Origin: a virus
Taxonomy: Duplodnaviria > Caudoviricetes
IMG/VR virus record: IMGVR_UViG_3300030372_002403
Span: 1 to 44,804 of that record
Length of the DNA: 44,804 bases
Strand: one strand, 5' to 3'
This document shows, one piece after another, positions 3,801-29,055 of this stretch. Position 1 is the first letter of the stretch; each line of letters opens with the position of its first letter. The translations under genes and the position numbers were made by a program. The notes beneath the pieces are model-generated. The model was not told the origin of the DNA. It was given only the letters and a program-made list of their open reading frames with translations, and did no database searches.

Positions 3801-3947
3801 GTGAGTATAGAAAAGAGAAGACAACAAGTAAGAGATAATAACGATAAAATTAGAAAGAAAATATTAAAAGCCACTGATAATGGTCGATGTTGGTGGCTTT
3901 ATCAACAACTAATAGCAAACCCTAAAAAATATAGGACTAGTGAATGA
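3801..3947 (+). CDS. Small basic hypothetical protein (48 aa), not in the ORF track
   Basis: AGGAG at 3791, GTG start, TGA overlaps the next ATG (ATGA). Confidence 0.6.
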   Translation: MSIEKRRQQVRDNNDKIRKKILKATDNGRCWWLYQQLIANPKKYRTSE

Positions 3948-4072
3948 GAAAACTAAACAGATTAGATAAGCTGCTTATAAATATTCTTTGGAAAATAGGT
4001 TACAAACCTAGTAAATTATCGATACTCTTTAAAGTATCAACAAGGACAATTTATAGGCAATTATGGAAATAA
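3944..4072 (+). CDS. Small HTH protein (42 aa), not in the ORF track
   Basis: MRKLNRLDKLLINILWKIGYKPSKLSILFKVSTRTIYRQLWK; VSTRTIYR recognition-helix pattern; overlaps both neighbours. Confidence 0.7.
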   Translation: MRKLNRLDKLLINILWKIGYKPSKLSILFKVSTRTIYRQLWK

Positions 4073-4230
4073 TTAACTGTTTACAATGTGGTAATATCGT
4101 TTCAGCAGGAGACTGTGGTTATTCGTGCCCCCTATGCGGATACTTAGAAACATGAAGCGATATTACAAATAAGATTGGAGGTACCAATGAAAGGAGTAAG
4201 CAAAAAATGGATGGAAAGATACAGAAATGA
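4063..4230 (+). CDS. Small zinc-finger protein with an in-frame UGA at codon 31 (candidate selenoprotein, 55 aa; 30 aa if UGA terminates)
   Basis: MEIINCLQCGNIVSAGDCGYSCPLCGYLET*SDITNKIGGTNERSKQKMDGKIQK*; the second TGA (4228-4230) overlaps the ATG of the next gene. Confidence 0.6.
4174..4188 (+). promoter_or_regulatory. SECIS-like hairpin downstream of the in-frame UGA
   Basis: ATTGG-AGGTA-CCAAT; 23 nt separate the UGA (4153-4155) from the loop, which has G at its second position. It also contains GGAGG, so it could instead be an RBS. Confidence 0.4.
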
Positions 4231-4964
4231 ACTTGCAGAAATACACAAGTCAAAAAGTAAAAAGACTAGACGCAGAAAGAAGGTGGTACAGCAGGGGAGA
4301 ATCAAATAACTGGAAACCATCAGTAACAACTGTCATAGGCGAAACATGTGCAAAGGGTAAACACTTTGAAGAATGGCTTATGAAAAATGGATTAAACGCT
4401 ATTACTGTTAGAGATGAATCAGCAAGAAGAGGGACTAAAGTACATGAATATATTGAAATGTTACTTGACGAAAATGAAGTAAAAGTAGAAGATGAGTTTA
4501 CTCAGAAGTCTTTAATGAGCTTTGAAAAGTTTTACAACGAAGTAAAACCTGAAGTGGTTGAGAAAGAACTGTTTCTTTACCATAAAGATATTCCTTGGGC
4601 TGGAACACCTGATATAATAGCAAAAATAAATAATCGTTTATCTTTAGTAGATATAAAAACAGGAGATTATAGAAAAACACACGAAATACAACAGTTAATG
4701 TATAAAGAATTGTGGAATACTATATTTCCTGATAACCCTATACTAGATATGTATGGCTTATATACAAAAGGTAAATGGATAAAAGAACCGAGTTATGGTT
4801 TTAGAAAATTTAAGGACAGTGATATGCATCATAGTGTTTATAAGTTATGGTGTTTCTTAAACTTTCCATATGGTAAACCATGGCCTAAACAAAAGCCTCA
4901 ATTAAAAAAGGAGTTTAAACTTGGACCCAAACCAGACGCACGAAGCATTGATGAATTGCTGTGA
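4227..4964 (+). CDS. PD-(D/E)XK exonuclease (Cas4/RecB-like phage nuclease)
   Basis: PSVTTVI, RGTKVHEYIE, AGTPDII, LVDIKTG, QQLMY. Confidence 0.85.
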   Translation: MNLQKYTSQKVKRLDAERRWYSRGESNNWKPSVTTVIGETCAKGKHFEEWLMKNGLNAITVRDESARRGTKVHEYIEMLLDENEVKVEDEFTQKSLMSFEKFYNEVKPEVVEKELFLYHKDIPWAGTPDIIAKINNRLSLVDIKTGDYRKTHEIQQLMYKELWNTIFPDNPILDMYGLYTKGKWIKEPSYGFRKFKDSDMHHSVYKLWCFLNFPYGKPWPKQKPQLKKEFKLGPKPDARSIDELL

Positions 4965-5442: not shown

Positions 5443-5625
5443 ATGGACTTTTGTGATAAATGTGGTGAAGAAATAGATACTCTTGAGCCTTGCTTAAGAA
5501 TTAGCCATGGTTTTTTAAATACAGATAAATCATTTAGCAAAATGGTTAGTGTTCATATTCATATTGATTGTTGTTCAGATACGCATTTATTAAGCGAAAT
5601 ACTATCTAAATTCGATAAAAATTAA
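5443..5625 (+). CDS. Small putative Zn-binding protein
   Basis: CDKC ... HIDC; its stop shares TTAA with the convergent giant ORF. Confidence 0.6.
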   Translation: MDFCDKCGEEIDTLEPCLRISHGFLNTDKSFSKMVSVHIHIDCCSDTHLLSEILSKFDKN

Positions 5626-8600
5626 TCTTCAATAGCAGTTCTATAAACAGGATGGTAAGCTTGTTGTTCTTTAAGTTTACGTCTTTCTCTTTGAATATCT
5701 CCATAAGGTATACCAGTAAACTTTTCAACAGTTCTGTAAGGATTATCTATAATATTACCTTTTGCAAAAGGAGCAATATCTCTTACTATTCTTCCAAAAG
5801 GAAACATAGTATAAATATGATAATCTAAAAATTTATCATAGTTATCATCAGTTAAAGTTTTTAATATACTCATCGGTGCTCTAGCAATAGGAGGAGTAAT
5901 CATCTGTAAAGGCGCTATAGCTGTAGGGTATGTTCCCCAAAATGCTCTTTGACGTTCTTTTTCGTCACCAAATATCCATTCAGATGTTTCTTTAAAATGG
6001 TTTAATGGAGCAGGTATTGCTAAATCAAATAAAGACATAGTAAATACACTACCTAAAGCATATACTAATAAATCAATTTGCATAGTTCTTTTAAATTTTT
6101 GATATTCAGGAGTACCTTCACGATAACCTCTTATACGAGCTTCTCTTATAACATCATTTCTAAATCTTGCAGCGTTCCAGGACCATAATTGAAAACGTGT
6201 CATAATTTTACCTAAAGCTGTTCTTGCAAATCCAGGACGATAAGGAGCAGAATATAGGAACTGTGTAGCTTTAACACCTTTTTTAGCCATTTCAATTAAG
6301 AATGGATGGTCAAACTGTGTAATAGCACCACCAAATCTTTCCCACGCTTTTATATAATGAGTCATAAACGCATCCTTACGAAGTGTCATTTCTGGTTTAG
6401 ACATAAATTTAGCAGCAGTTTTAAATATAGGTTCTGTAATTTTGTATTCTTTTGCTAATTCTTTAAATGATTTAGGTTCTATTTCACCATCTTTATTTAA
6501 TTTTCTACCAACTTCTTTTAAGAATCTTTTAGTATTAACACTTTGTAATTCTTTTTGCATACCCCATTCATTTTGTAACATTTCAGGAAACACACCTTGT
6601 TTCTTTATAAAATCTAATACAGCTTGTTTGTTTGTCCAATCTGGATTAATTGTTCTTAAAAAGTTATAATCATAAACTTTACGTAAAGATTTAGCTCCAG
6701 CACTTTGAATTGTATGTAAAGAACCACCGAATAAGTTATTTATCATAGATTTAGGGTGAGCAAGTAACGTTGCTAACTCATATTTAGCTTCAAGATTAGA
6801 CCATCTTGTTATGTCTGCAACGCTAAACTTCTCTATTCCAGGTAAGTCTTCTTTTACACCAAGCTTTTTAGCAATTTTATTAACTTTATCCTTAACTTTA
6901 TTATCAGCCCACCAAGCATAAGGTGTGCCTTTAAGTTTCATACCTGGGTCATTAATCATATAATCAGGTATAATACTAGGATGTCCCATTGCATCTTGTA
7001 CATAAAGTTTATAATGGTCAAGCCATCTATCTTTTAAGCTTCTACCTGTCTTAGGGTCAAACTGAATTTTATGCCAACCTTTTGCAAATGCTTGCTGGTC
7101 AAAGTCAACTAATATATCTCTAGACATTATTTGAGCTAACTGTTTATAATAAGTGTTAAACACATTTCTAGAATAAGCTTCAGGAACAGTAGCATCTATA
7201 GACCATCCAGGAATATGTGTAGTTCTTTGATGCATAGCACCAGTCATTTGATTTGCTTGAAACCAAGTAACTTTATCAGATTTTGCCTGAATTTTTAAAG
7301 GGTCAACAGCATTTTCATATGCTTCCCAATTTTCTAAGCCTGTAATCCAATCACCTGTTAAAGTTTTGTGACGCCATTGTATTTTATTAATCTCAGCTTC
7401 TTTATCAGATTTAGATATGTTTGATTTATTTATAGTTTCCAAAGCTTCTTTTAATGCTTTAGTAGCCATATTTTTATCAAAAAACATATGAGGCCAATAA
7501 CCTTCAGCAATTTCTCCAGTATCTTTAGGTAAAAGTAATTCTTTTCTTAGTTTAGCTCGACTTTTAAATACTTGCATTCTTTTATTATGTAATTTAATCA
7601 TCATAGAACGTGCTATCTGTCTTAAACCATCTATACCAAATTCTGTTGTTATATCTTCACCTCGTTCATAAGCTTTTCTAATGTCATTAACAAAACGTCT
7701 ATAGTCATAAACAGGTTCTTCAGGTTTTGTTCTATCGTATTTATGAAAATCCTTTATGTCCCAATATAATTTTTCACCTTTTTTATTTCTAAGATGATAA
7801 GAGTCAAGAAGTTCTTTATTGCCTGAAATAATTCTATACATATCTTTAAAATGATTTTTATAAACATCTGTAATTTTTTCAACAATTTGTTCACCAGTAT
7901 ATTCTCGTCTTTTAACTACACCATTTATAGTTTCATTAATCCTATAAGTATTGTTTCTTAATTGATTATAATCAGTAGTTATAACTTCTCTATCATATTC
8001 TTTTAAATAATTTCTAGCCCAATTTTTTGATAAAACTTTATCTGAATGTAAATTTTTACTTACGTTTCCATCTCTTTCTATCTTACGAACAGCTATTCTT
8101 CTTAAAGATTCACCATCTTCTAAAGCATCTATAAACTCTAATTTTTCTCTTAGCATACCAACCATTTCCTCACCTTTGGCTTGTGCTTTATCTAAATTCA
8201 TAGTAACATCATGCTGTAATCTTTCTGTAAAATTACTTGGGACCTGTATATCACCTTCTACAACTTTACCATCTTTTGTAACAAATAAACCTCTTTTTTG
8301 CAAAAGCTCAATATCATAATGCATAGTCTCTCTATTTAATGTTAAAGGAAATAACCAACTATTTCTTTTATTTATTAAAGGAGCTTTCATTCCAGATACA
8401 TTTTCTTTTCTATCAAAAGATTTTAAATCTTTAGGAGCTTTTCTAAAGTCTCCAAATATTCTTTGAGCAACTGTTCCTCTTTGAACTTCTTTAAAATAAT
8501 TATTTAAATCAACAAAGTTTTTGTATTGCATAGCATTAAAGTCTTTACCAATAACTGCTCTAGTTATTTCATTTAAGTTTTGCCCTACTTTACCATTATA

Positions 8601-11600
8601 AAATTTTAATCTTTCTACAAGCTCTGTAAGTTCTTGTCTAATTTTTTTAGGTATTTTAGCCATATCAGGTTTACCATGTAAACCTTCATAACCTGTTGTT
8701 GTATCTTTTAATATTGTACCTTCAGGTGTATCTTTTTCTGACATCTGACCTTTTTCAATATTTTTAATAAAAGTTTCATTTACAGGTGTTCTTTCATATG
8801 CTTTATTCATAACTGTAGCATAATCACCTATAAAATCTATAACACTTTGTTGGTCTACACTTCTAGAAGACATCCCTAACTTACTTATTGAGGTGCTTGT
8901 AGTTTTATTTCTAAATGTCCCTAACATTAACATATCAAATAATTTTTGAGCTCTAGGATTAGGTAATGTAGCTTTTATTTGTGCTATTCTAGCATCTACC
9001 TCAGCTTGGTCTAATGTTCTACTTCTTTCTTTTCCTTCAGCCTTTAATTCGCCAAAACTTTTTCTAACTGATGGAGGTATAATATCATCAGTAGCAACTT
9101 CTTCAGGCTTTTCTAAGTCCTTTCTTTGCAAATAACTGTCACGCCTTAATGCGCTAACATCTTTTAAAATTTTACCAAATAAAACTTCACCTATTTCTGC
9201 TCTATCATAGTATCTATATAATTGTCTAAAGGAAACCATATCACTAACATCTTGGGTAAGAATATCTTCTGAAAATTTTAACAACTCTTTTAATTGGTCT
9301 CTTCTATATTGTTCACTTTTTCTTACTAATGCTCTATTTTTCTTTGATATTTTATAGTTCCAAGCATTACCTCTAGCATAAGGACTTCCAGGATATTTCA
9401 TTATTGCATCAAATGTTTTTAAACTTTCTGCAGCTTTATCTAATTGATTTTTATTCCATAAACCACTTCTTATTATAGCGTCTACTAAAGGATTTTTTTC
9501 AACTTTTAAATTTTTTAGTAATTTAGAAAACTCAGGTAATTGGTCTACAATATAGTTATGCTCTTTATACATCCTAAATAAATTAGTTTTATTTATATTT
9601 AGAAATGGACTGTCATATAAGTCTACTTGATTTGCAATTTTGCCCATTTTAGTTAACATAGTGTTTTGAGCAGACTCTAAACCTAAACCATCTTCGTAAT
9701 TTAAATATCTAGTTTTATCTTTTATGCTTTGAGCATCCCAAGACCTGTTGTTTGAAAAATCCCTACTATAAAGCGCAGAGTTAATATCAAACATTTGACC
9801 TATGATACCATTTTTATTTGTTAAAATCTTATAGTTTTCATTATTTAATTTAACTTCTCTTCCATCAATTTTTACTTTAAAATAAGCATTACCTAATTTA
9901 GACACATAATCAGCATAACCTTTTAATCCAGCAACATCTAACGGGTCAGATGTGAATGCAACCATAGAAGACGCTAATTGTCTTGCGTTTTTTAATTCAG
10001 ATTTATTATCTCTTGCTTCTATAGATATTTTTTGTGTATAAGGTTTTTTGCCATAATTAGCTTTTACAGTTATAGTAAATTTATTTTCCTTCTTAGGTAA
10101 TTTTAACATAGAATTATGAGCAGATTTTAATACTTGAGTCATAGTTACTGTTCCACCTAGTAAATCACGACCTTCTACAGCTCTTTGGGATATACCTTCT
10201 CTCCAATTACTATCATATTGCCATACTTTACTATCTCTAGCAACAGGGTCTATACCTGTTTTAACATAATCATCTTGTGTAGTTAAATACTCTTCATAAG
10301 TAATTTTTTCTCCTGGAACAATACCTTCTTTTCTATCAGGTGTACGTCCTGTTTTTGGGTCTAAATACTCGTCTTTATTTTTATGGAAAGTTTCTGTCCA
10401 TTCAGACTTAAAACCATCTCCTTTACCACCTTTTCTTCCACCAAAAAAGATATGTGCCTCATCACCATCAAGGTCAGCACCACCCTCTGCTCTCATAGCT
10501 CTTGAGTGCATTAATATACCATGTCCTTTTCTACCAGTAAATCCAGCAAACTCTAAAGCTTGTGCTCCACTTGTAGAATCCATAGGAACTCTTACTGTTA
10601 AAGCTCTTAAAACTTGCTTAGCATCCATTTTATATTCTTTATCTAAAGGTTTTTTCATTTTACCAGAACCTCTATAAGAATGCCAAAGCTCTTCTAATGT
10701 AGTTTTTTCGAACCCAGGTATATGAGTTCTTAAAGGCATTTTTCTAAATGATTCGTCTAAGAAAAATATATCGTCTCTATTTTCTAAATCTTTAAATTTA
10801 GCATCTCTTTGAAACCATTTGTCAAACCCTCTCATTCTAGCTACACCACTATTTCCTATTTTAGGTTTACTTAAAGATTGAAATACATAGTTTCTTATAA
10901 CTTGGAATCTATAAGGTCTAATATACTTATGTAATAGAACTGTATTTATATTACCAGGTCTTCCTGCTATCTTTTCTGATTGCGACCATTTTTGTGCTGC
11001 ATCAATAATTCTATCTGTAGCGCTATTAAATTCATTTATATTTTCTAATATTTTTTGACCTTCTTGAGCTGTTATATCACCTTCTGCAATTCTTTCAGAT
11101 ACATTTTCTCTATTTATTTTCATTAAACGCATATAAGCTACGTCTGTAAAATCAGTATGCTTTCCATTTATAGCTTGCAATAGATTGTCGATACCTAACT
11201 TATCTACATTTTTTTCTAATAATCTTAATAATTGAGTAGACTTAGGGTTATCCATATATTCTTGAAACGTTTTATTTACAGTAGCATCACCTTCGTATTT
11301 TTTGTAAATAGTCTCATTAAAAAAGTCTTCTATTAATCTCCTAGGAAAAGAATGGTGTGTATTTTGAGCCATTGCCATTAATAACTGTTTAGGAATACCA
11401 TGTTTATGTACACTACCATCAGGATTGTAGCCAGCCATTGTATTAGATTGTTTTACATTGTAACTGTATTTTATATGTTCTAAAGGTAATTCATAAACAA
11501 GGCTAGGGTCTTCTATGTTTAGTTTGTCTTTTGTTAAAGTATAATCAGTAACTTTTCTTTCGCCTCTTTGTTTTACAGCAGAGTCTTGCATAATCATATG

Positions 11601-14546
11601 TAATCCAGCTTCTCTCATCTGTTTAGAAGCAACTTCTCCAGCACTATGCATCATATATTTACCAAGTAAAGCGCCATTTGTAGCATCAGGACTAACAATA
11701 AATGATTTACTTTGCCCTTCTCCTGGCATGCCACTATCTTTTATTAAAGATTTTAAATAACCATCCTCTACTATAATCATACCATCAACATGTTCACCAT
11801 GTTCTGTATTTTTACTATTTTTATCTAAAAGCTTTATTCTTTTTAGCTTATTATTTACTAATGAAAATAATTTAGGGTCTAAATCTCTTGCTATTATATA
11901 TCTAGCTACACCGTTTTTAGATGCGTCTTTAAATTCTGTTGAATATTTTGATGAATCTTTTATTGTTTTTAAATATTTAGAGTAAGAATCTCCTACAAAT
12001 TTTTTATCTGCCCTCCAGGTAGGTGTAAACCATATTTGGTTTCTTTTATTCCAAGCTGTAGCATTTTTAATGTAACCATCATTTTCAAATAACTTTTTTA
12101 AATCCCTATAGTATTCTTTAGCAGTTTTTGGTTTAAAACCATTTAAAGATAAATCCCACATAATATTGCTTAGATATTGGTCTTTAGCCTCTGTTTCTGA
12201 AAAGTTTTTATTTCTTCTTATAGCCATATTATAAAAGTCTCTATTTAAGTAACCTTTTTTACCAGAAGGTTTACTTAAAAAGTTATCTAAATACTGACCT
12301 ATGTACGCTTTTGATGCTCCTTTAGCCATGTCAGGGTGTTTTTTGATATATATAATAGTATCATTATCTCCTTTACCTCCAAAAGGATAATAACCTTCTT
12401 TTAGCATATTGTTATGCATTTCTTTTATAAATTTCTGATAAGCTTTAACGCCTCCCTCATCTGATTTATTTTTTGCTATAAGATATTTTCTATACTGATT
12501 TATTCCCATATCAACGAATCTACCCTTTTCAGCCACAGTAACATTGTCAAATATAAAATGAGAATCTTCTTTAGTTCCAGGAACTAACTCTTCTAAAACT
12601 CTTTGTATTTCTTTTTTAGACTCTATGTTCTGTATTCTATTTCCAGCTAAGGTAAAGTTATCTTCTCCTCTTACTTTATTACTTACTACTTTACCATCTT
12701 TATCAGCAGAAACATTTCTATATTTTACTGGTTCGCCAAAGTTTTTACGAGTTAACCATTGTCTGAAGTTGTTTACAGTTTCAGCATCTATTTTACTTCT
12801 AATATCTATATTTTCTTTTATCTTAAACTCATTTACTATATCTTCTACAAGCTCTTTAGTATTAACTCTTTGACCTTTTCTCATATACTTTTCACCCTTA
12901 ATAATAGTGTCAAGCATATCAGTTAATCGTATAACCTCATTTCTTTTTGTGTTAGGACTAGTTTTAGGTTTGTCCCACACTTCTGATAATTTGTCTTGAA
13001 CAAATATTTCAGATTTTCTATATAAGTCCATACTAGAAGTCATACCAATATCATTTCCATCATTAGTTCTTGGTTCTACTTCTATTTCACCACTTTCTTT
13101 ATCAATAAATTGACCAGGTTCAAGCTCTAGTAAGCCTCTTTCACTTTCGTTTAAATCAGCAAGGTCACCTTCTAACTTCTTTATATTTTCTTCAGCTAAT
13201 AATCTTTCAGCGCCTTCTTTTTTATCAAGCTCTAGCTTCTCTTTGTTTAGTTTGTCTACAAGGATTTTTTTGTCTTCAAATATTTTGTTTAAGTCTTTTT
13301 TAGTCTCAGTTGCTAAACCTACATTTTGCTCTTTAAAAACGCCTGATTGAACTCTTTTGACAAACTCAGCCCAACCTTTATCTGTTAATGTAGTTTTACT
13401 TGGCTCTATACCTAATCCTTTGGCAACAAATTCTTGAAATGCTGTTCTAGCTTCAAATCCACCAGCTTTTACAACGTCAGGGTCATAATGAATACTAGGC
13501 TTACCATTGTCATATTTATCATTTGTCATCATTTCTATGACTTCTTTTTTAACTTCTGGGTCTAAATTTTTCCATTCTTTTACAAGACTAGGGTCATTAG
13601 TAGCTCTTAATTTAGGGTCACCTTTTTTACCACCTGAGCCAGTAGCTTGTTTTTCTTTAGCGACCATAAACTTTTGAGCTCCTTGCTGCTTCCAGCCTGT
13701 AGCTCCACCACCAAAATAAGCACCAAGTAAATACTCATAAACTTGTTCAGGAGTAGTCGCTCCTCTTTGCGTAGCAGGTAATCCTTGGAATATAGAACCA
13801 GATATAGCTCTTAAAGCATAACTACCAGCACCTTTTCCAGGTATCATATTTCCTAGAGCACCAAAAGCTGCTCCAAACTTTGCTCCACCTACACCAGCTT
13901 CTATCATACCATCAACGCCTTGTTTCCAGTTACTTACTGCACTAGCAACACCAAGCTTCATACCTTCATCTATTACACTTTTTGTAGCCCCACTAGTTAA
14001 AAACTTTGCTACAACTCCAGTAGCGTCACTTCTTCTTCCTATTGCTTGCCTTATAATAGGGCTTACAGCTTTTCTTGCTTTTTTGGTAGCATATTCTCCA
14101 ATACCTAAAGGTACAGATTTTATACCACCTAAAACATTAGCTGCTCTATTTGCTCCTAATAACTTTAATGGTTTAGCTGCCATGCCTGGAGCGAATCCAA
14201 GTAAATGGCCTACGTTACGAGCTATTGCTTCATATTCATTGTCAGGTGGGTCTACTACACTAAATGTAGTAAAACCTTCTAATGCACCGCCCAAAAATTG
14301 CTTTAATGCATCAGATATACTAAAATCACCTGCATAAAATCCAACATTATGATAAATAGCATGCTTTTTTATTTGTTCGATTTGCTCTTTATTAAAAGCT
14401 CTAGGGTTATTTTTATAACCTCTTATTATTGATTGTAATTGTGTTTTAGAATACCTAGGATTAAACTGTTCAGATACAGTTGCTTTATCTCCTTGAGGTT
14501 CTTCTTGAGGATAGTAGTCGTATAAACCGTAAGGGTTTACAGCCAT
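5622..14546 (-). CDS. Giant (2974 aa) putative virion-packaged two-barrel RNA polymerase / ejection protein
   Basis: LTVRVP (R1319) followed by GGADLDGD (D1358-D1362, nt 10461-10475); upstream HVDG, LLGK and DSAVK motifs; Gly/Ala-rich N-terminus; last gene of the virion module. Confidence 0.8.
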   Translation of the reverse strand: MAVNPYGLYDYYPQEEPQGDKATVSEQFNPRYSKTQLQSIIRGYKNNPRAFNKEQIEQIKKHAIYHNVGFYAGDFSISDALKQFLGGALEGFTTFSVVDPPDNEYEAIARNVGHLLGFAPGMAAKPLKLLGANRAANVLGGIKSVPLGIGEYATKKARKAVSPIIRQAIGRRSDATGVVAKFLTSGATKSVIDEGMKLGVASAVSNWKQGVDGMIEAGVGGAKFGAAFGALGNMIPGKGAGSYALRAISGSIFQGLPATQRGATTPEQVYEYLLGAYFGGGATGWKQQGAQKFMVAKEKQATGSGGKKGDPKLRATNDPSLVKEWKNLDPEVKKEVIEMMTNDKYDNGKPSIHYDPDVVKAGGFEARTAFQEFVAKGLGIEPSKTTLTDKGWAEFVKRVQSGVFKEQNVGLATETKKDLNKIFEDKKILVDKLNKEKLELDKKEGAERLLAEENIKKLEGDLADLNESERGLLELEPGQFIDKESGEIEVEPRTNDGNDIGMTSSMDLYRKSEIFVQDKLSEVWDKPKTSPNTKRNEVIRLTDMLDTIIKGEKYMRKGQRVNTKELVEDIVNEFKIKENIDIRSKIDAETVNNFRQWLTRKNFGEPVKYRNVSADKDGKVVSNKVRGEDNFTLAGNRIQNIESKKEIQRVLEELVPGTKEDSHFIFDNVTVAEKGRFVDMGINQYRKYLIAKNKSDEGGVKAYQKFIKEMHNNMLKEGYYPFGGKGDNDTIIYIKKHPDMAKGASKAYIGQYLDNFLSKPSGKKGYLNRDFYNMAIRRNKNFSETEAKDQYLSNIMWDLSLNGFKPKTAKEYYRDLKKLFENDGYIKNATAWNKRNQIWFTPTWRADKKFVGDSYSKYLKTIKDSSKYSTEFKDASKNGVARYIIARDLDPKLFSLVNNKLKRIKLLDKNSKNTEHGEHVDGMIIVEDGYLKSLIKDSGMPGEGQSKSFIVSPDATNGALLGKYMMHSAGEVASKQMREAGLHMIMQDSAVKQRGERKVTDYTLTKDKLNIEDPSLVYELPLEHIKYSYNVKQSNTMAGYNPDGSVHKHGIPKQLLMAMAQNTHHSFPRRLIEDFFNETIYKKYEGDATVNKTFQEYMDNPKSTQLLRLLEKNVDKLGIDNLLQAINGKHTDFTDVAYMRLMKINRENVSERIAEGDITAQEGQKILENINEFNSATDRIIDAAQKWSQSEKIAGRPGNINTVLLHKYIRPYRFQVIRNYVFQSLSKPKIGNSGVARMRGFDKWFQRDAKFKDLENRDDIFFLDESFRKMPLRTHIPGFEKTTLEELWHSYRGSGKMKKPLDKEYKMDAKQVLRALTVRVPMDSTSGAQALEFAGFTGRKGHGILMHSRAMRAEGGADLDGDEAHIFFGGRKGGKGDGFKSEWTETFHKNKDEYLDPKTGRTPDRKEGIVPGEKITYEEYLTTQDDYVKTGIDPVARDSKVWQYDSNWREGISQRAVEGRDLLGGTVTMTQVLKSAHNSMLKLPKKENKFTITVKANYGKKPYTQKISIEARDNKSELKNARQLASSMVAFTSDPLDVAGLKGYADYVSKLGNAYFKVKIDGREVKLNNENYKILTNKNGIIGQMFDINSALYSRDFSNNRSWDAQSIKDKTRYLNYEDGLGLESAQNTMLTKMGKIANQVDLYDSPFLNINKTNLFRMYKEHNYIVDQLPEFSKLLKNLKVEKNPLVDAIIRSGLWNKNQLDKAAESLKTFDAIMKYPGSPYARGNAWNYKISKKNRALVRKSEQYRRDQLKELLKFSEDILTQDVSDMVSFRQLYRYYDRAEIGEVLFGKILKDVSALRRDSYLQRKDLEKPEEVATDDIIPPSVRKSFGELKAEGKERSRTLDQAEVDARIAQIKATLPNPRAQKLFDMLMLGTFRNKTTSTSISKLGMSSRSVDQQSVIDFIGDYATVMNKAYERTPVNETFIKNIEKGQMSEKDTPEGTILKDTTTGYEGLHGKPDMAKIPKKIRQELTELVERLKFYNGKVGQNLNEITRAVIGKDFNAMQYKNFVDLNNYFKEVQRGTVAQRIFGDFRKAPKDLKSFDRKENVSGMKAPLINKRNSWLFPLTLNRETMHYDIELLQKRGLFVTKDGKVVEGDIQVPSNFTERLQHDVTMNLDKAQAKGEEMVGMLREKLEFIDALEDGESLRRIAVRKIERDGNVSKNLHSDKVLSKNWARNYLKEYDREVITTDYNQLRNNTYRINETINGVVKRREYTGEQIVEKITDVYKNHFKDMYRIISGNKELLDSYHLRNKKGEKLYWDIKDFHKYDRTKPEEPVYDYRRFVNDIRKAYERGEDITTEFGIDGLRQIARSMMIKLHNKRMQVFKSRAKLRKELLLPKDTGEIAEGYWPHMFFDKNMATKALKEALETINKSNISKSDKEAEINKIQWRHKTLTGDWITGLENWEAYENAVDPLKIQAKSDKVTWFQANQMTGAMHQRTTHIPGWSIDATVPEAYSRNVFNTYYKQLAQIMSRDILVDFDQQAFAKGWHKIQFDPKTGRSLKDRWLDHYKLYVQDAMGHPSIIPDYMINDPGMKLKGTPYAWWADNKVKDKVNKIAKKLGVKEDLPGIEKFSVADITRWSNLEAKYELATLLAHPKSMINNLFGGSLHTIQSAGAKSLRKVYDYNFLRTINPDWTNKQAVLDFIKKQGVFPEMLQNEWGMQKELQSVNTKRFLKEVGRKLNKDGEIEPKSFKELAKEYKITEPIFKTAAKFMSKPEMTLRKDAFMTHYIKAWERFGGAITQFDHPFLIEMAKKGVKATQFLYSAPYRPGFARTALGKIMTRFQLWSWNAARFRNDVIREARIRGYREGTPEYQKFKRTMQIDLLVYALGSVFTMSLFDLAIPAPLNHFKETSEWIFGDEKERQRAFWGTYPTAIAPLQMITPPIARAPMSILKTLTDDNYDKFLDYHIYTMFPFGRIVRDIAPFAKGNIIDNPYRTVEKFTGIPYGDIQRERRKLKEQQAYHPVYRTAIED

Positions 14547-28740: not shown

Positions 28741-29055
28741 TTAATTTAGTATCTTGTCTATTTCTCCCCAATCATTAGGGTTAGTCCAAGCGGAAGTCGC
28801 GTTTTCCAAAAGGGTTAAAGTTTCTTTTCTATTTAATTTCAAAAATCTGTCGCCACACTTCATGCATTGCCATATTAAACTTCTATCACATGTTCCAAGT
28901 ATTTCTAAACCTGCTATACTAGATTTTGAACAAGTAGGGCATTTTTTAGGCCTTGTTTTATACTCTGTATTATCTATTACACCTATATTTTCAACAATGT
29001 CACCATTGTTTTTATCAGTTATATCGTTTAATAATACAAATAATTTTCTTATCAT
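28741..29055 (-). CDS. Zn-ribbon hypothetical protein
   Basis: CPTC...WQCMKC; TAATG overlap with the upstream ORF. Confidence 0.65.
   Translation of the reverse strand: MIRKLFVLLNDITDKNNGDIVENIGVIDNTEYKTRPKKCPTCSKSSIAGLEILGTCDRSLIWQCMKCGDRFLKLNRKETLTLLENATSAWTNPNDWGEIDKILN

Follow-up and report, generated by a model that had tools for sequence, protein, structure and literature searches.

A small zinc-ribbon gene in a marine phage carries an in-frame UGA, and the question raised by this locus is whether the codon terminates a 30-aa product (4063-4155) or is read as selenocysteine (Sec) within a longer one. The window, meaning the whole analysed stretch of 44,804 nucleotides, is a virus record that is 87% complete and was found in marine metagenome runs, with no RNA run among those listed. 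In this study, comparison of the gene with its relatives indicated that the UGA at 4153-4155 is very probably read as selenocysteine by the host system. Moreover, the zinc-ribbon gene, with its UGA at the position of a conserved Cys and a hairpin behind it, is highly likely to encode a selenoprotein, for which a function as redox shuttle or sensor is predicted. This reading was adopted because the UGA is invariant, UGA and Cys codons alternate at the site, conservation continues past the codon, and a hairpin is kept family-wide at a fixed distance. An earlier note on this DNA had proposed that the UGA places Sec where zinc fingers resembling HVO_2523 keep a Cys, with a bacterial SECIS and the host machinery, and the proposal passed every comparative test that was run. 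The features of the locus are the following.

3944..4072, plus strand: HTH-like gene, 42 aa, with a 10-nt overlap with the zinc-ribbon start (HTH_23, E 0.006, below the cut-off)
4063..4230, plus strand: zinc-ribbon gene with the UGA read through, giving 55 aa and a predicted Sec31, conserved only over about residues 1-35
4078..4137, plus strand: Cys6, Cys9, Cys22 and Cys25, predicted to bind zinc, with Cys18 (4114-4116) predicted to pair with Sec31
4153..4155, plus strand: in-frame TGA, predicted selenocysteine codon
4174..4188, plus strand: SECIS-like hairpin with a 5-bp stem (4174-4178 and 4184-4188), the loop AGGTA at 4179-4183 and the key G at 4180
4177..4181, plus strand: GGAGG in the hairpin, 5 nt before the ATG at 4187, likely ribosome-binding site of the ORF at 4187
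4187..4309, plus strand: basic ORF of 40 aa with the motif G-V-S-K-x-W, separate in the window and overlapping the exonuclease start
4227..4964, plus strand: PD-(D/E)XK-type exonuclease (phrog_298, E 7.8e-28), its start overlapping the read-through stop (ATGA)

The window contains virion genes for an SU10-type capsid protein, a P22-like portal and a terminase, and no tRNA gene was found in the whole window. The order in the replication module is Sak4-like annealing protein, primase-helicase, HNH nuclease, two small ORFs, the candidate and the exonuclease. The carriers of the family were mostly related podoviruses, with the SU10 capsid in 18 of the 25 contigs tested and in 15 of the 16 near-complete ones; GenBank phages gave capsid matches of 22-34% only and no match to the small zinc-ribbon protein below E 3. 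Across the family, the zinc-ribbon gene had various neighbours, among them replication genes, terminase and unassigned genes of the virion region. At two loci, L379 and L432, the gene lay between large unassigned genes resembling the virion-region proteins of the window, and this location outside the replication module suggested that the gene moves as a small cassette. There was no Rfam match, and the promoter and terminator scans were at chance level. Elsewhere in the window, a protein of 2974 aa (5622-14546, minus strand) that adjoins the virion genes carries a D-x-D-G-D motif of the kind typical of RNA polymerase active sites; it is possibly a virion-packaged RNA polymerase, and it had no match in PDB or PHROGs. 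Two further small Cys-rich CxxC ORFs were noticed at 5443-5625 (plus strand) and 28741-29055 (minus strand), neither of which has an in-frame TGA.

The motif described previously, C-x2-CG-x7-C-x3-CP-x-CG-x4-[TGA]-S-D from the ATG at 4063 with the TGA at 4153-4155, was present as claimed, and so were the 24 sense codons after the UGA and the final TGA at 4228-4230, which overlaps the exonuclease ATG at 4227. Cys6, Cys9, Cys18, Cys22 and Cys25 were invariant in 38/38 aligned family members, which had been chosen by that Cys pattern. With Cys in place of Sec, the predicted structure was a zinc ribbon (pLDDT 82.6) with strands at 2-5, 12-16, 19-21 and 28-30, and the model paired the regions of strands 19-21 and 28-30, which flank the second knuckle. 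Its fold matches were weak (RNA-polymerase zinc ribbons, best E 0.25), a PDB sequence search with the protein returned generic zinc ribbons only, and Pfam, PHROGs and NCBIfam gave no match over cut-off. The HVO_2523 family micro-protein of Haloferax volcanii (NCBIfam NF041914) shares the six-Cys spacing ending in C-S-D. However, NF041914 matched the Cys-type relatives at 13.8-25.8 bits (best E 7.7e-6, profile positions 3-31 of 33), short of its 60-bit cut-off, and gave no match on the window protein, which itself aligns gap-free to the matching relatives. HVO_2523 is archaeal and, by the name of its model, Cys only, whereas Sec is predicted in the phage family; its deletion alters glycerol growth, biofilm and swarming (PMC6562870).

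An assembly error at the TGA was rejected, as the contigs of 4/4 runs gave the same letters at 4153-4155, although contigs drop rare variants; in the same contigs the nearby positions 4145 and 4156 varied. This agreement, together with the invariance of the TGA in relatives, answered the concern over sequencing error. A search based on the exonuclease recovered 25 loci, 22 of which had the zinc finger upstream, all 22 with TGA. When a pattern blind to that codon was applied to viral and metagenome loci (9/127 loci had no match), TGA was found in 46/46 unique relatives. In the near clade, a set of 42 sequences from which one more distant sequence had been set aside, TGA was present in 42/42, while codon 30 took six forms, codon 33 was GAT or GAC (25/17) and codon 34 was ATT or ATA (25/17). 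Furthermore, five of six neighbouring orthologous genes switch stop codon within the clade, and the sixth stop is part of TAGGAG. A scan that admitted TAA, TAG, TGA or TGG at the site gave 98 unique sequences, 89 with an open core, among the matches listed (119 of about 130 stretches); the open cores comprised 87 TGA, 1 TAA and 1 TGG, and the two exceptions, judged by eye, look like unrelated Cys-rich shadow frames. Homologues with TAA or TAG, which would have spoken against Sec, were thus represented by that one unrelated-looking sequence among the matches listed.

Conservation also extended beyond the codon, and it did so differently in two subgroups. Coding-type conservation covered codons 32-35 in all 42 sequences and codons 32-54 in the 29 sequences of subgroup b, and an acidic residue occurs within three codons after the UGA in 29/31 clusters. 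In subgroup b, the G-V-S-K-x-W block is fused in frame behind the UGA and, as in subgroup a, overlaps the exonuclease start. Codons 32-55 had no in-frame stop in 29/29 of these sequences, both other frames being stopped in 29/29, and the ratio of synonymous to non-synonymous changes was 9:7 and 10:4 in frame, against 1:17, 2:28, 2:12 and 0:14 out of frame. No ATG precedes the block in the subgroup-b sequences viewed, so the block is best reached through the UGA; an in-frame TTG exists, with no visible SD. In subgroup a (13 sequences, including the window), the same block is a separate ORF starting at ATG 4187, whose frame is better conserved than the read-through frame, and both GGAGG and ATG 4187 are kept in 13/13. 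Conservation at codons 43-52 was not found in the window's subgroup, where the tail after about codon 42 had a synonymous to non-synonymous ratio of 1:13, that is, no coding selection in frame. The expected conservation past the UGA therefore held for codons 32-35 in 42/42 and for codons 32-54 in subgroup b, but not for the tail of the window's own subgroup. A +1 frameshift at the UGA was rejected, the +1 frame being open in 13/13 subgroup-a sequences but closed in 29/29 of subgroup b.

Sec insertion could instead serve mainly as a selenium-sensing switch, delivering ribosomes to the exonuclease start or gating the ORF at 4187 through SelB, with the protein mattering little. In line with this, ATGA or GTGA closes 13/13 read-through frames of subgroup a, all of them have the SD and ATG in the hairpin, and the window exonuclease has no strong SD. 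However, the arrangement is not family-wide: the tails run from 2 to 73 codons, ATGA closes the frame in 1/31 clusters and GTGA in one more, the neighbours differ, and the exonucleases of subgroup b carry their own AGGAG. In addition, conservation extends to five Cys and to the acidic residue that follows Sec. As the main role of Sec, the switch is therefore improbable. The earlier suggestion that exonuclease translation is tied to selenium supply fared poorly because tail length and end and gene neighbourhood vary across the family. ATGA coupling is not used throughout the genome as had been stated: it occurs at 3/37 other junctions, with one-base TAATG or TAGTG overlaps at 7. At three other loci, L054 (1504-1620), L133 and L137, the protein ends 2-3 codons past the UGA and the hairpin lies over an SD-like sequence of the next gene, as in the window.

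The hairpin, claimed as a bacterial SECIS element, was confirmed 23 nt after the UGA. In the bacterial SECIS model, the loop has 3-9 nt and the stem 4-16 bp, a G stands in the first two loop positions, usually as G[G/U], the spacing is 16-37 nt and the free energy is -7.5 kcal/mol or lower (PMC13188914); some genuine elements fall outside the model, according to the review (PMC13188914). The window hairpin agrees in geometry (loop 5, stem 5, AG, 23 nt). Its energy by ViennaRNA, on a segment and with parameters not taken from the model, was -5.4 kcal/mol at 37 °C, above the threshold, and -9.2 kcal/mol at 20 °C. By itself the hairpin was weak (z -1.0 to -1.9 at 37 °C), and 11-33 of 200 shuffles folded equally well in four windows starting at or after the UGA; it exceeds chance only across the family. 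The loop, stem and G constraints held in 30/30 viral TGA clusters (<70% identity). At -2 kcal/mol or better, a hairpin was found in 24/30 of these clusters versus 9.9% of shuffles, and the same test on Cys clusters gave 4/15 against a shuffle rate of 24.9%. Under a strict register rule, whose distance window of 16-26 nt was fixed after data inspection, a G-loop hairpin was present in 28/34 TGA clusters, 0/16 Cys clusters and 3.4% of shuffles, and 2/39 other stops of the window passed; the 6/34 TGA clusters that failed included 2/3 cellular forms. The key G lay 17-24 nt past the UGA across clusters, on very different stems. In the subgroup-b pair count (20 of 29 sequences), 100% of cells were paired, with G-C to A-U in 4 sequences and G-C to G-U in 2, probably few events because the sequences are related; register pair counts across clusters are circular and were excluded as covariation evidence. 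The covariation check thus yielded one G-C to A-U compensation (4/20), probably of few origins, and the SECIS claim was borne out in geometry and family-wide enrichment, with a window hairpin whose energy misses the threshold at 37 °C.

The family pattern obtained from viral-contig scans was C-x2-C-x8-C-x3-C-x2-CG[YF]-x3-[C/U]-x-D. Among the matches listed, 119 stretches in each of two scans, there were at least 83 unique cores, 54 with TGA and 29 with TGT or TGC, so that the alternation of TGA with TGT/TGC at codon 31, which had been named as a sign of Sec, was present. In an alignment almost free of gaps, the TGA codon falls on the invariant Cys of the 29 Cys-type relatives. Moreover, with U read as C, the near-clade profile matched the Cys form L162 (97.7%, E 1.8e-12), and the Cys-form protein P0017 was similar to the phage TGA clades. 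These Cys forms and the conserved frame would also be accounted for if the UGA were read through as Cys or Trp, either because near-cognate decoding is leaky or because the host has a variant tRNA, and variant Sec machinery is known that inserts Cys at UGA under the direction of a hairpin. Position 31 is W in four database proteins (P0003, P0004, P0011 and P0018) and R in P0002, a single 544-base contig. However, the W form P0026 is identical over its first 30 residues to locus L050, which has TGA and lies on a contig of equal length, so W at this position probably stems from gene calling. Among the 89 open cores listed, none with TGG belonged to the family, the hairpin fits the SelB-type G[G/U] loop consensus, and TGT or TGC would be open to any phage needing Cys; insertion of Cys or Trp at the UGA is accordingly very unlikely. 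In the records of P0004, P0025 and P0026, the TGA is read as W and a stop follows three residues on, for which no reason is visible in L050.

A plain stop at the UGA, leaving a 30-aa zinc ribbon, with a hairpin that hides the ribosome-binding site of the next gene until ribosomes terminate (translational coupling), was judged less likely still. The products deposited by gene callers for this gene are indeed of 30 aa, the hairpin of subgroup a contains GGAGG and part of ATG 4187, L054 is similar with the SD in the loop, and the Lachnospiraceae form L501 has this TGA without Sec machinery. The earlier note had counted it against Sec if GGAGG served only ATG 4187; GGAGG does appear to serve that start in subgroup a, but the 29 relatives of subgroup b keep the hairpin without an SD-ATG, and the hairpin is therefore not only a ribosome-binding site. 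A plain stop is moreover hard to reconcile with 87 TGA against 1 TAA among the listed matches, in genomes that prefer TAA (TGA terminates only 4/39 window genes), and it leaves the alignment with Cys, the in-frame synonymous variation and the acidic residues after the UGA (29/31 clusters) unexplained. A code in which UGA is always sense (table 4 or 25), to which the database records containing W might point, is refuted, since 39 window genes have no internal TGA but 208 TGG codons, TGA ends 4 of them, the window has no tRNA, and the exonuclease stop alternates among TGA, TAA and TAG in relatives.

Selenocysteine inserted by the host's machinery, the reading retained here, implies a host that possesses it. 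Sec machinery borne by the phage was rejected as a source: in addition to the window without tRNA, selD and tRNA-Sec over cut-off were found in 0/25 carrier contigs each. A pattern scan of GTDB gave 40 matches, 24 with stops in the core and 16 open, most of the latter chance-like, and 4 were tested. Three of these, L493 (Planctomycetota), L508 (Acidiferrales) and L482 (Dehalococcoidia), look like family members with TGA, and selA, selB and tRNA-Sec all scored over cut-off in their genomes. L501 has TGA at the same place and no hairpin, and in its genome, of completeness not given, none of the three (selA, selB, tRNA-Sec) reached the cut-off. The cellular TGA forms in Planctomycetota, Acidobacteriota and Chloroflexota are, from their sequences, candidate new bacterial selenoproteins. 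L482 adjoins genes with matches to phage-type regulators.

As judged from sequence, the zinc-ribbon gene appears to work like a standard bacterial selenoprotein gene that happens to reside in a phage. Bacterial genes of the type with SelB and a SECIS in the ORF share the UGA on a conserved Cys, the loop G followed by G/U, a stem of at least 4 bp and the spacing of 16-37 nt (PMC13188914). In contrast to them, the gene described here belongs to a phage in which no sel genes were found, and its hairpin is minimal and appears to double as a ribosome-binding site. The zinc-ribbon family is not among the 119 prokaryotic selenoprotein families of the 2026 catalogue, as far as its available text goes (PMC13188914). 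The small CxxC-CxxC proteins NF041197 (dual CXXC) and TIGR02605 (FmdB-family zinc ribbon) are listed as selenoproteins and resemble the phage protein; their Sec motifs, however, are RxU/GxU and UxxU, a search for NF041197 at E 10 found nothing in the window, and TIGR02605 was absent from the NCBIfam matches. Viral borrowing of host Sec machinery is shared with the selenoprotein glutathione peroxidases of poxviruses (molluscum contagiosum, fowlpox), which differ as captured GPx genes of eukaryotic viruses with eukaryotic SECIS elements (PMC8310308). At the level of listings and abstracts, no phage selenoprotein was found in the literature (also 10.1101/2022.07.06.499078, PMC13326102). Neither phage nor virus occurs as a word in the main text of the 2026 review or of the BSepDB paper, and bacterial selenoproteins are catalogued there from cells only; in the available text of a marine survey, viral sequences were reported as few or absent for all families apart from three metalloproteins (PMC9402790).

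A possible function is suggested by the six-Cys tail of class II ribonucleotide reductase (NrdJ), in which C920, C923, C936 and C939 were proposed to bind zinc and C933 and C945 to shuttle electrons (PMC5704485). Like the phage protein, this C-terminal domain has two CxxC zinc knuckles and an extra pair, spaced 3-10-3-3-6 versus 3-9-4-3-6 in the phage. The phage protein differs in that it stands alone, is longer by one residue from the extra Cys to the second knuckle, and would carry Sec on the terminal redox Cys. A weak match to NF006417 residues 733-756 (E 1.9) was obtained, and the likeness is offered as an analogy of working, not as membership. On this analogy, it is tentatively proposed, at somewhat under even chances, that Cys6, Cys9, Cys22 and Cys25 bind zinc and that Cys18 and Sec31 form a redox pair; alternatively, Sec31 may bind a metal, or the role may be chiefly regulatory. 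In the proposed mechanism, SelB of the host, together with Sec-tRNA, would attach to the G-loop hairpin, and selenocysteine would be inserted at residue 31 of the small zinc ribbon. Cys18 and Sec31, which would lie opposite one another on the second hairpin of the protein, would then form a reducible selenenylsulfide on the zinc scaffold, and the target of the shuttle would be some host or phage protein. Without selenium, a 30-aa ribbon lacking the redox pair would result. The partner is not a phage ribonucleotide reductase, since this enzyme (PF02867) was found in 0/25 carrier contigs and in none of the window ORFs scanned.

A wider picture, speculative and rather doubtful at present, is that a widespread lineage of 50-kb marine podoviruses has kept a Sec-dependent redox shuttle, equivalent to the electron-transfer domain of NrdJ but independent of the enzyme, across dozens of divergent clades. 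The shuttle might plug into host redox or nucleotide metabolism, so that infection would depend on the Sec system of the host and on ocean selenium, the hosts would be Sec users, and the SECIS of subgroup a would double as a SelB-gated ribosome-binding site. The dozens of family hairpins of 12-20 nt lend themselves to a study of how small a bacterial SECIS can be. If the selenoprotein reading is true, Sec beside a zinc ribbon would be a new selenoprotein fold context, the gene would be a host-prediction marker for uncultured phages, and gene callers would be shown to truncate such genes. Bacterial viruses would be shown to use the 21st amino acid if selection has long maintained UGA and SECIS in a phage family.
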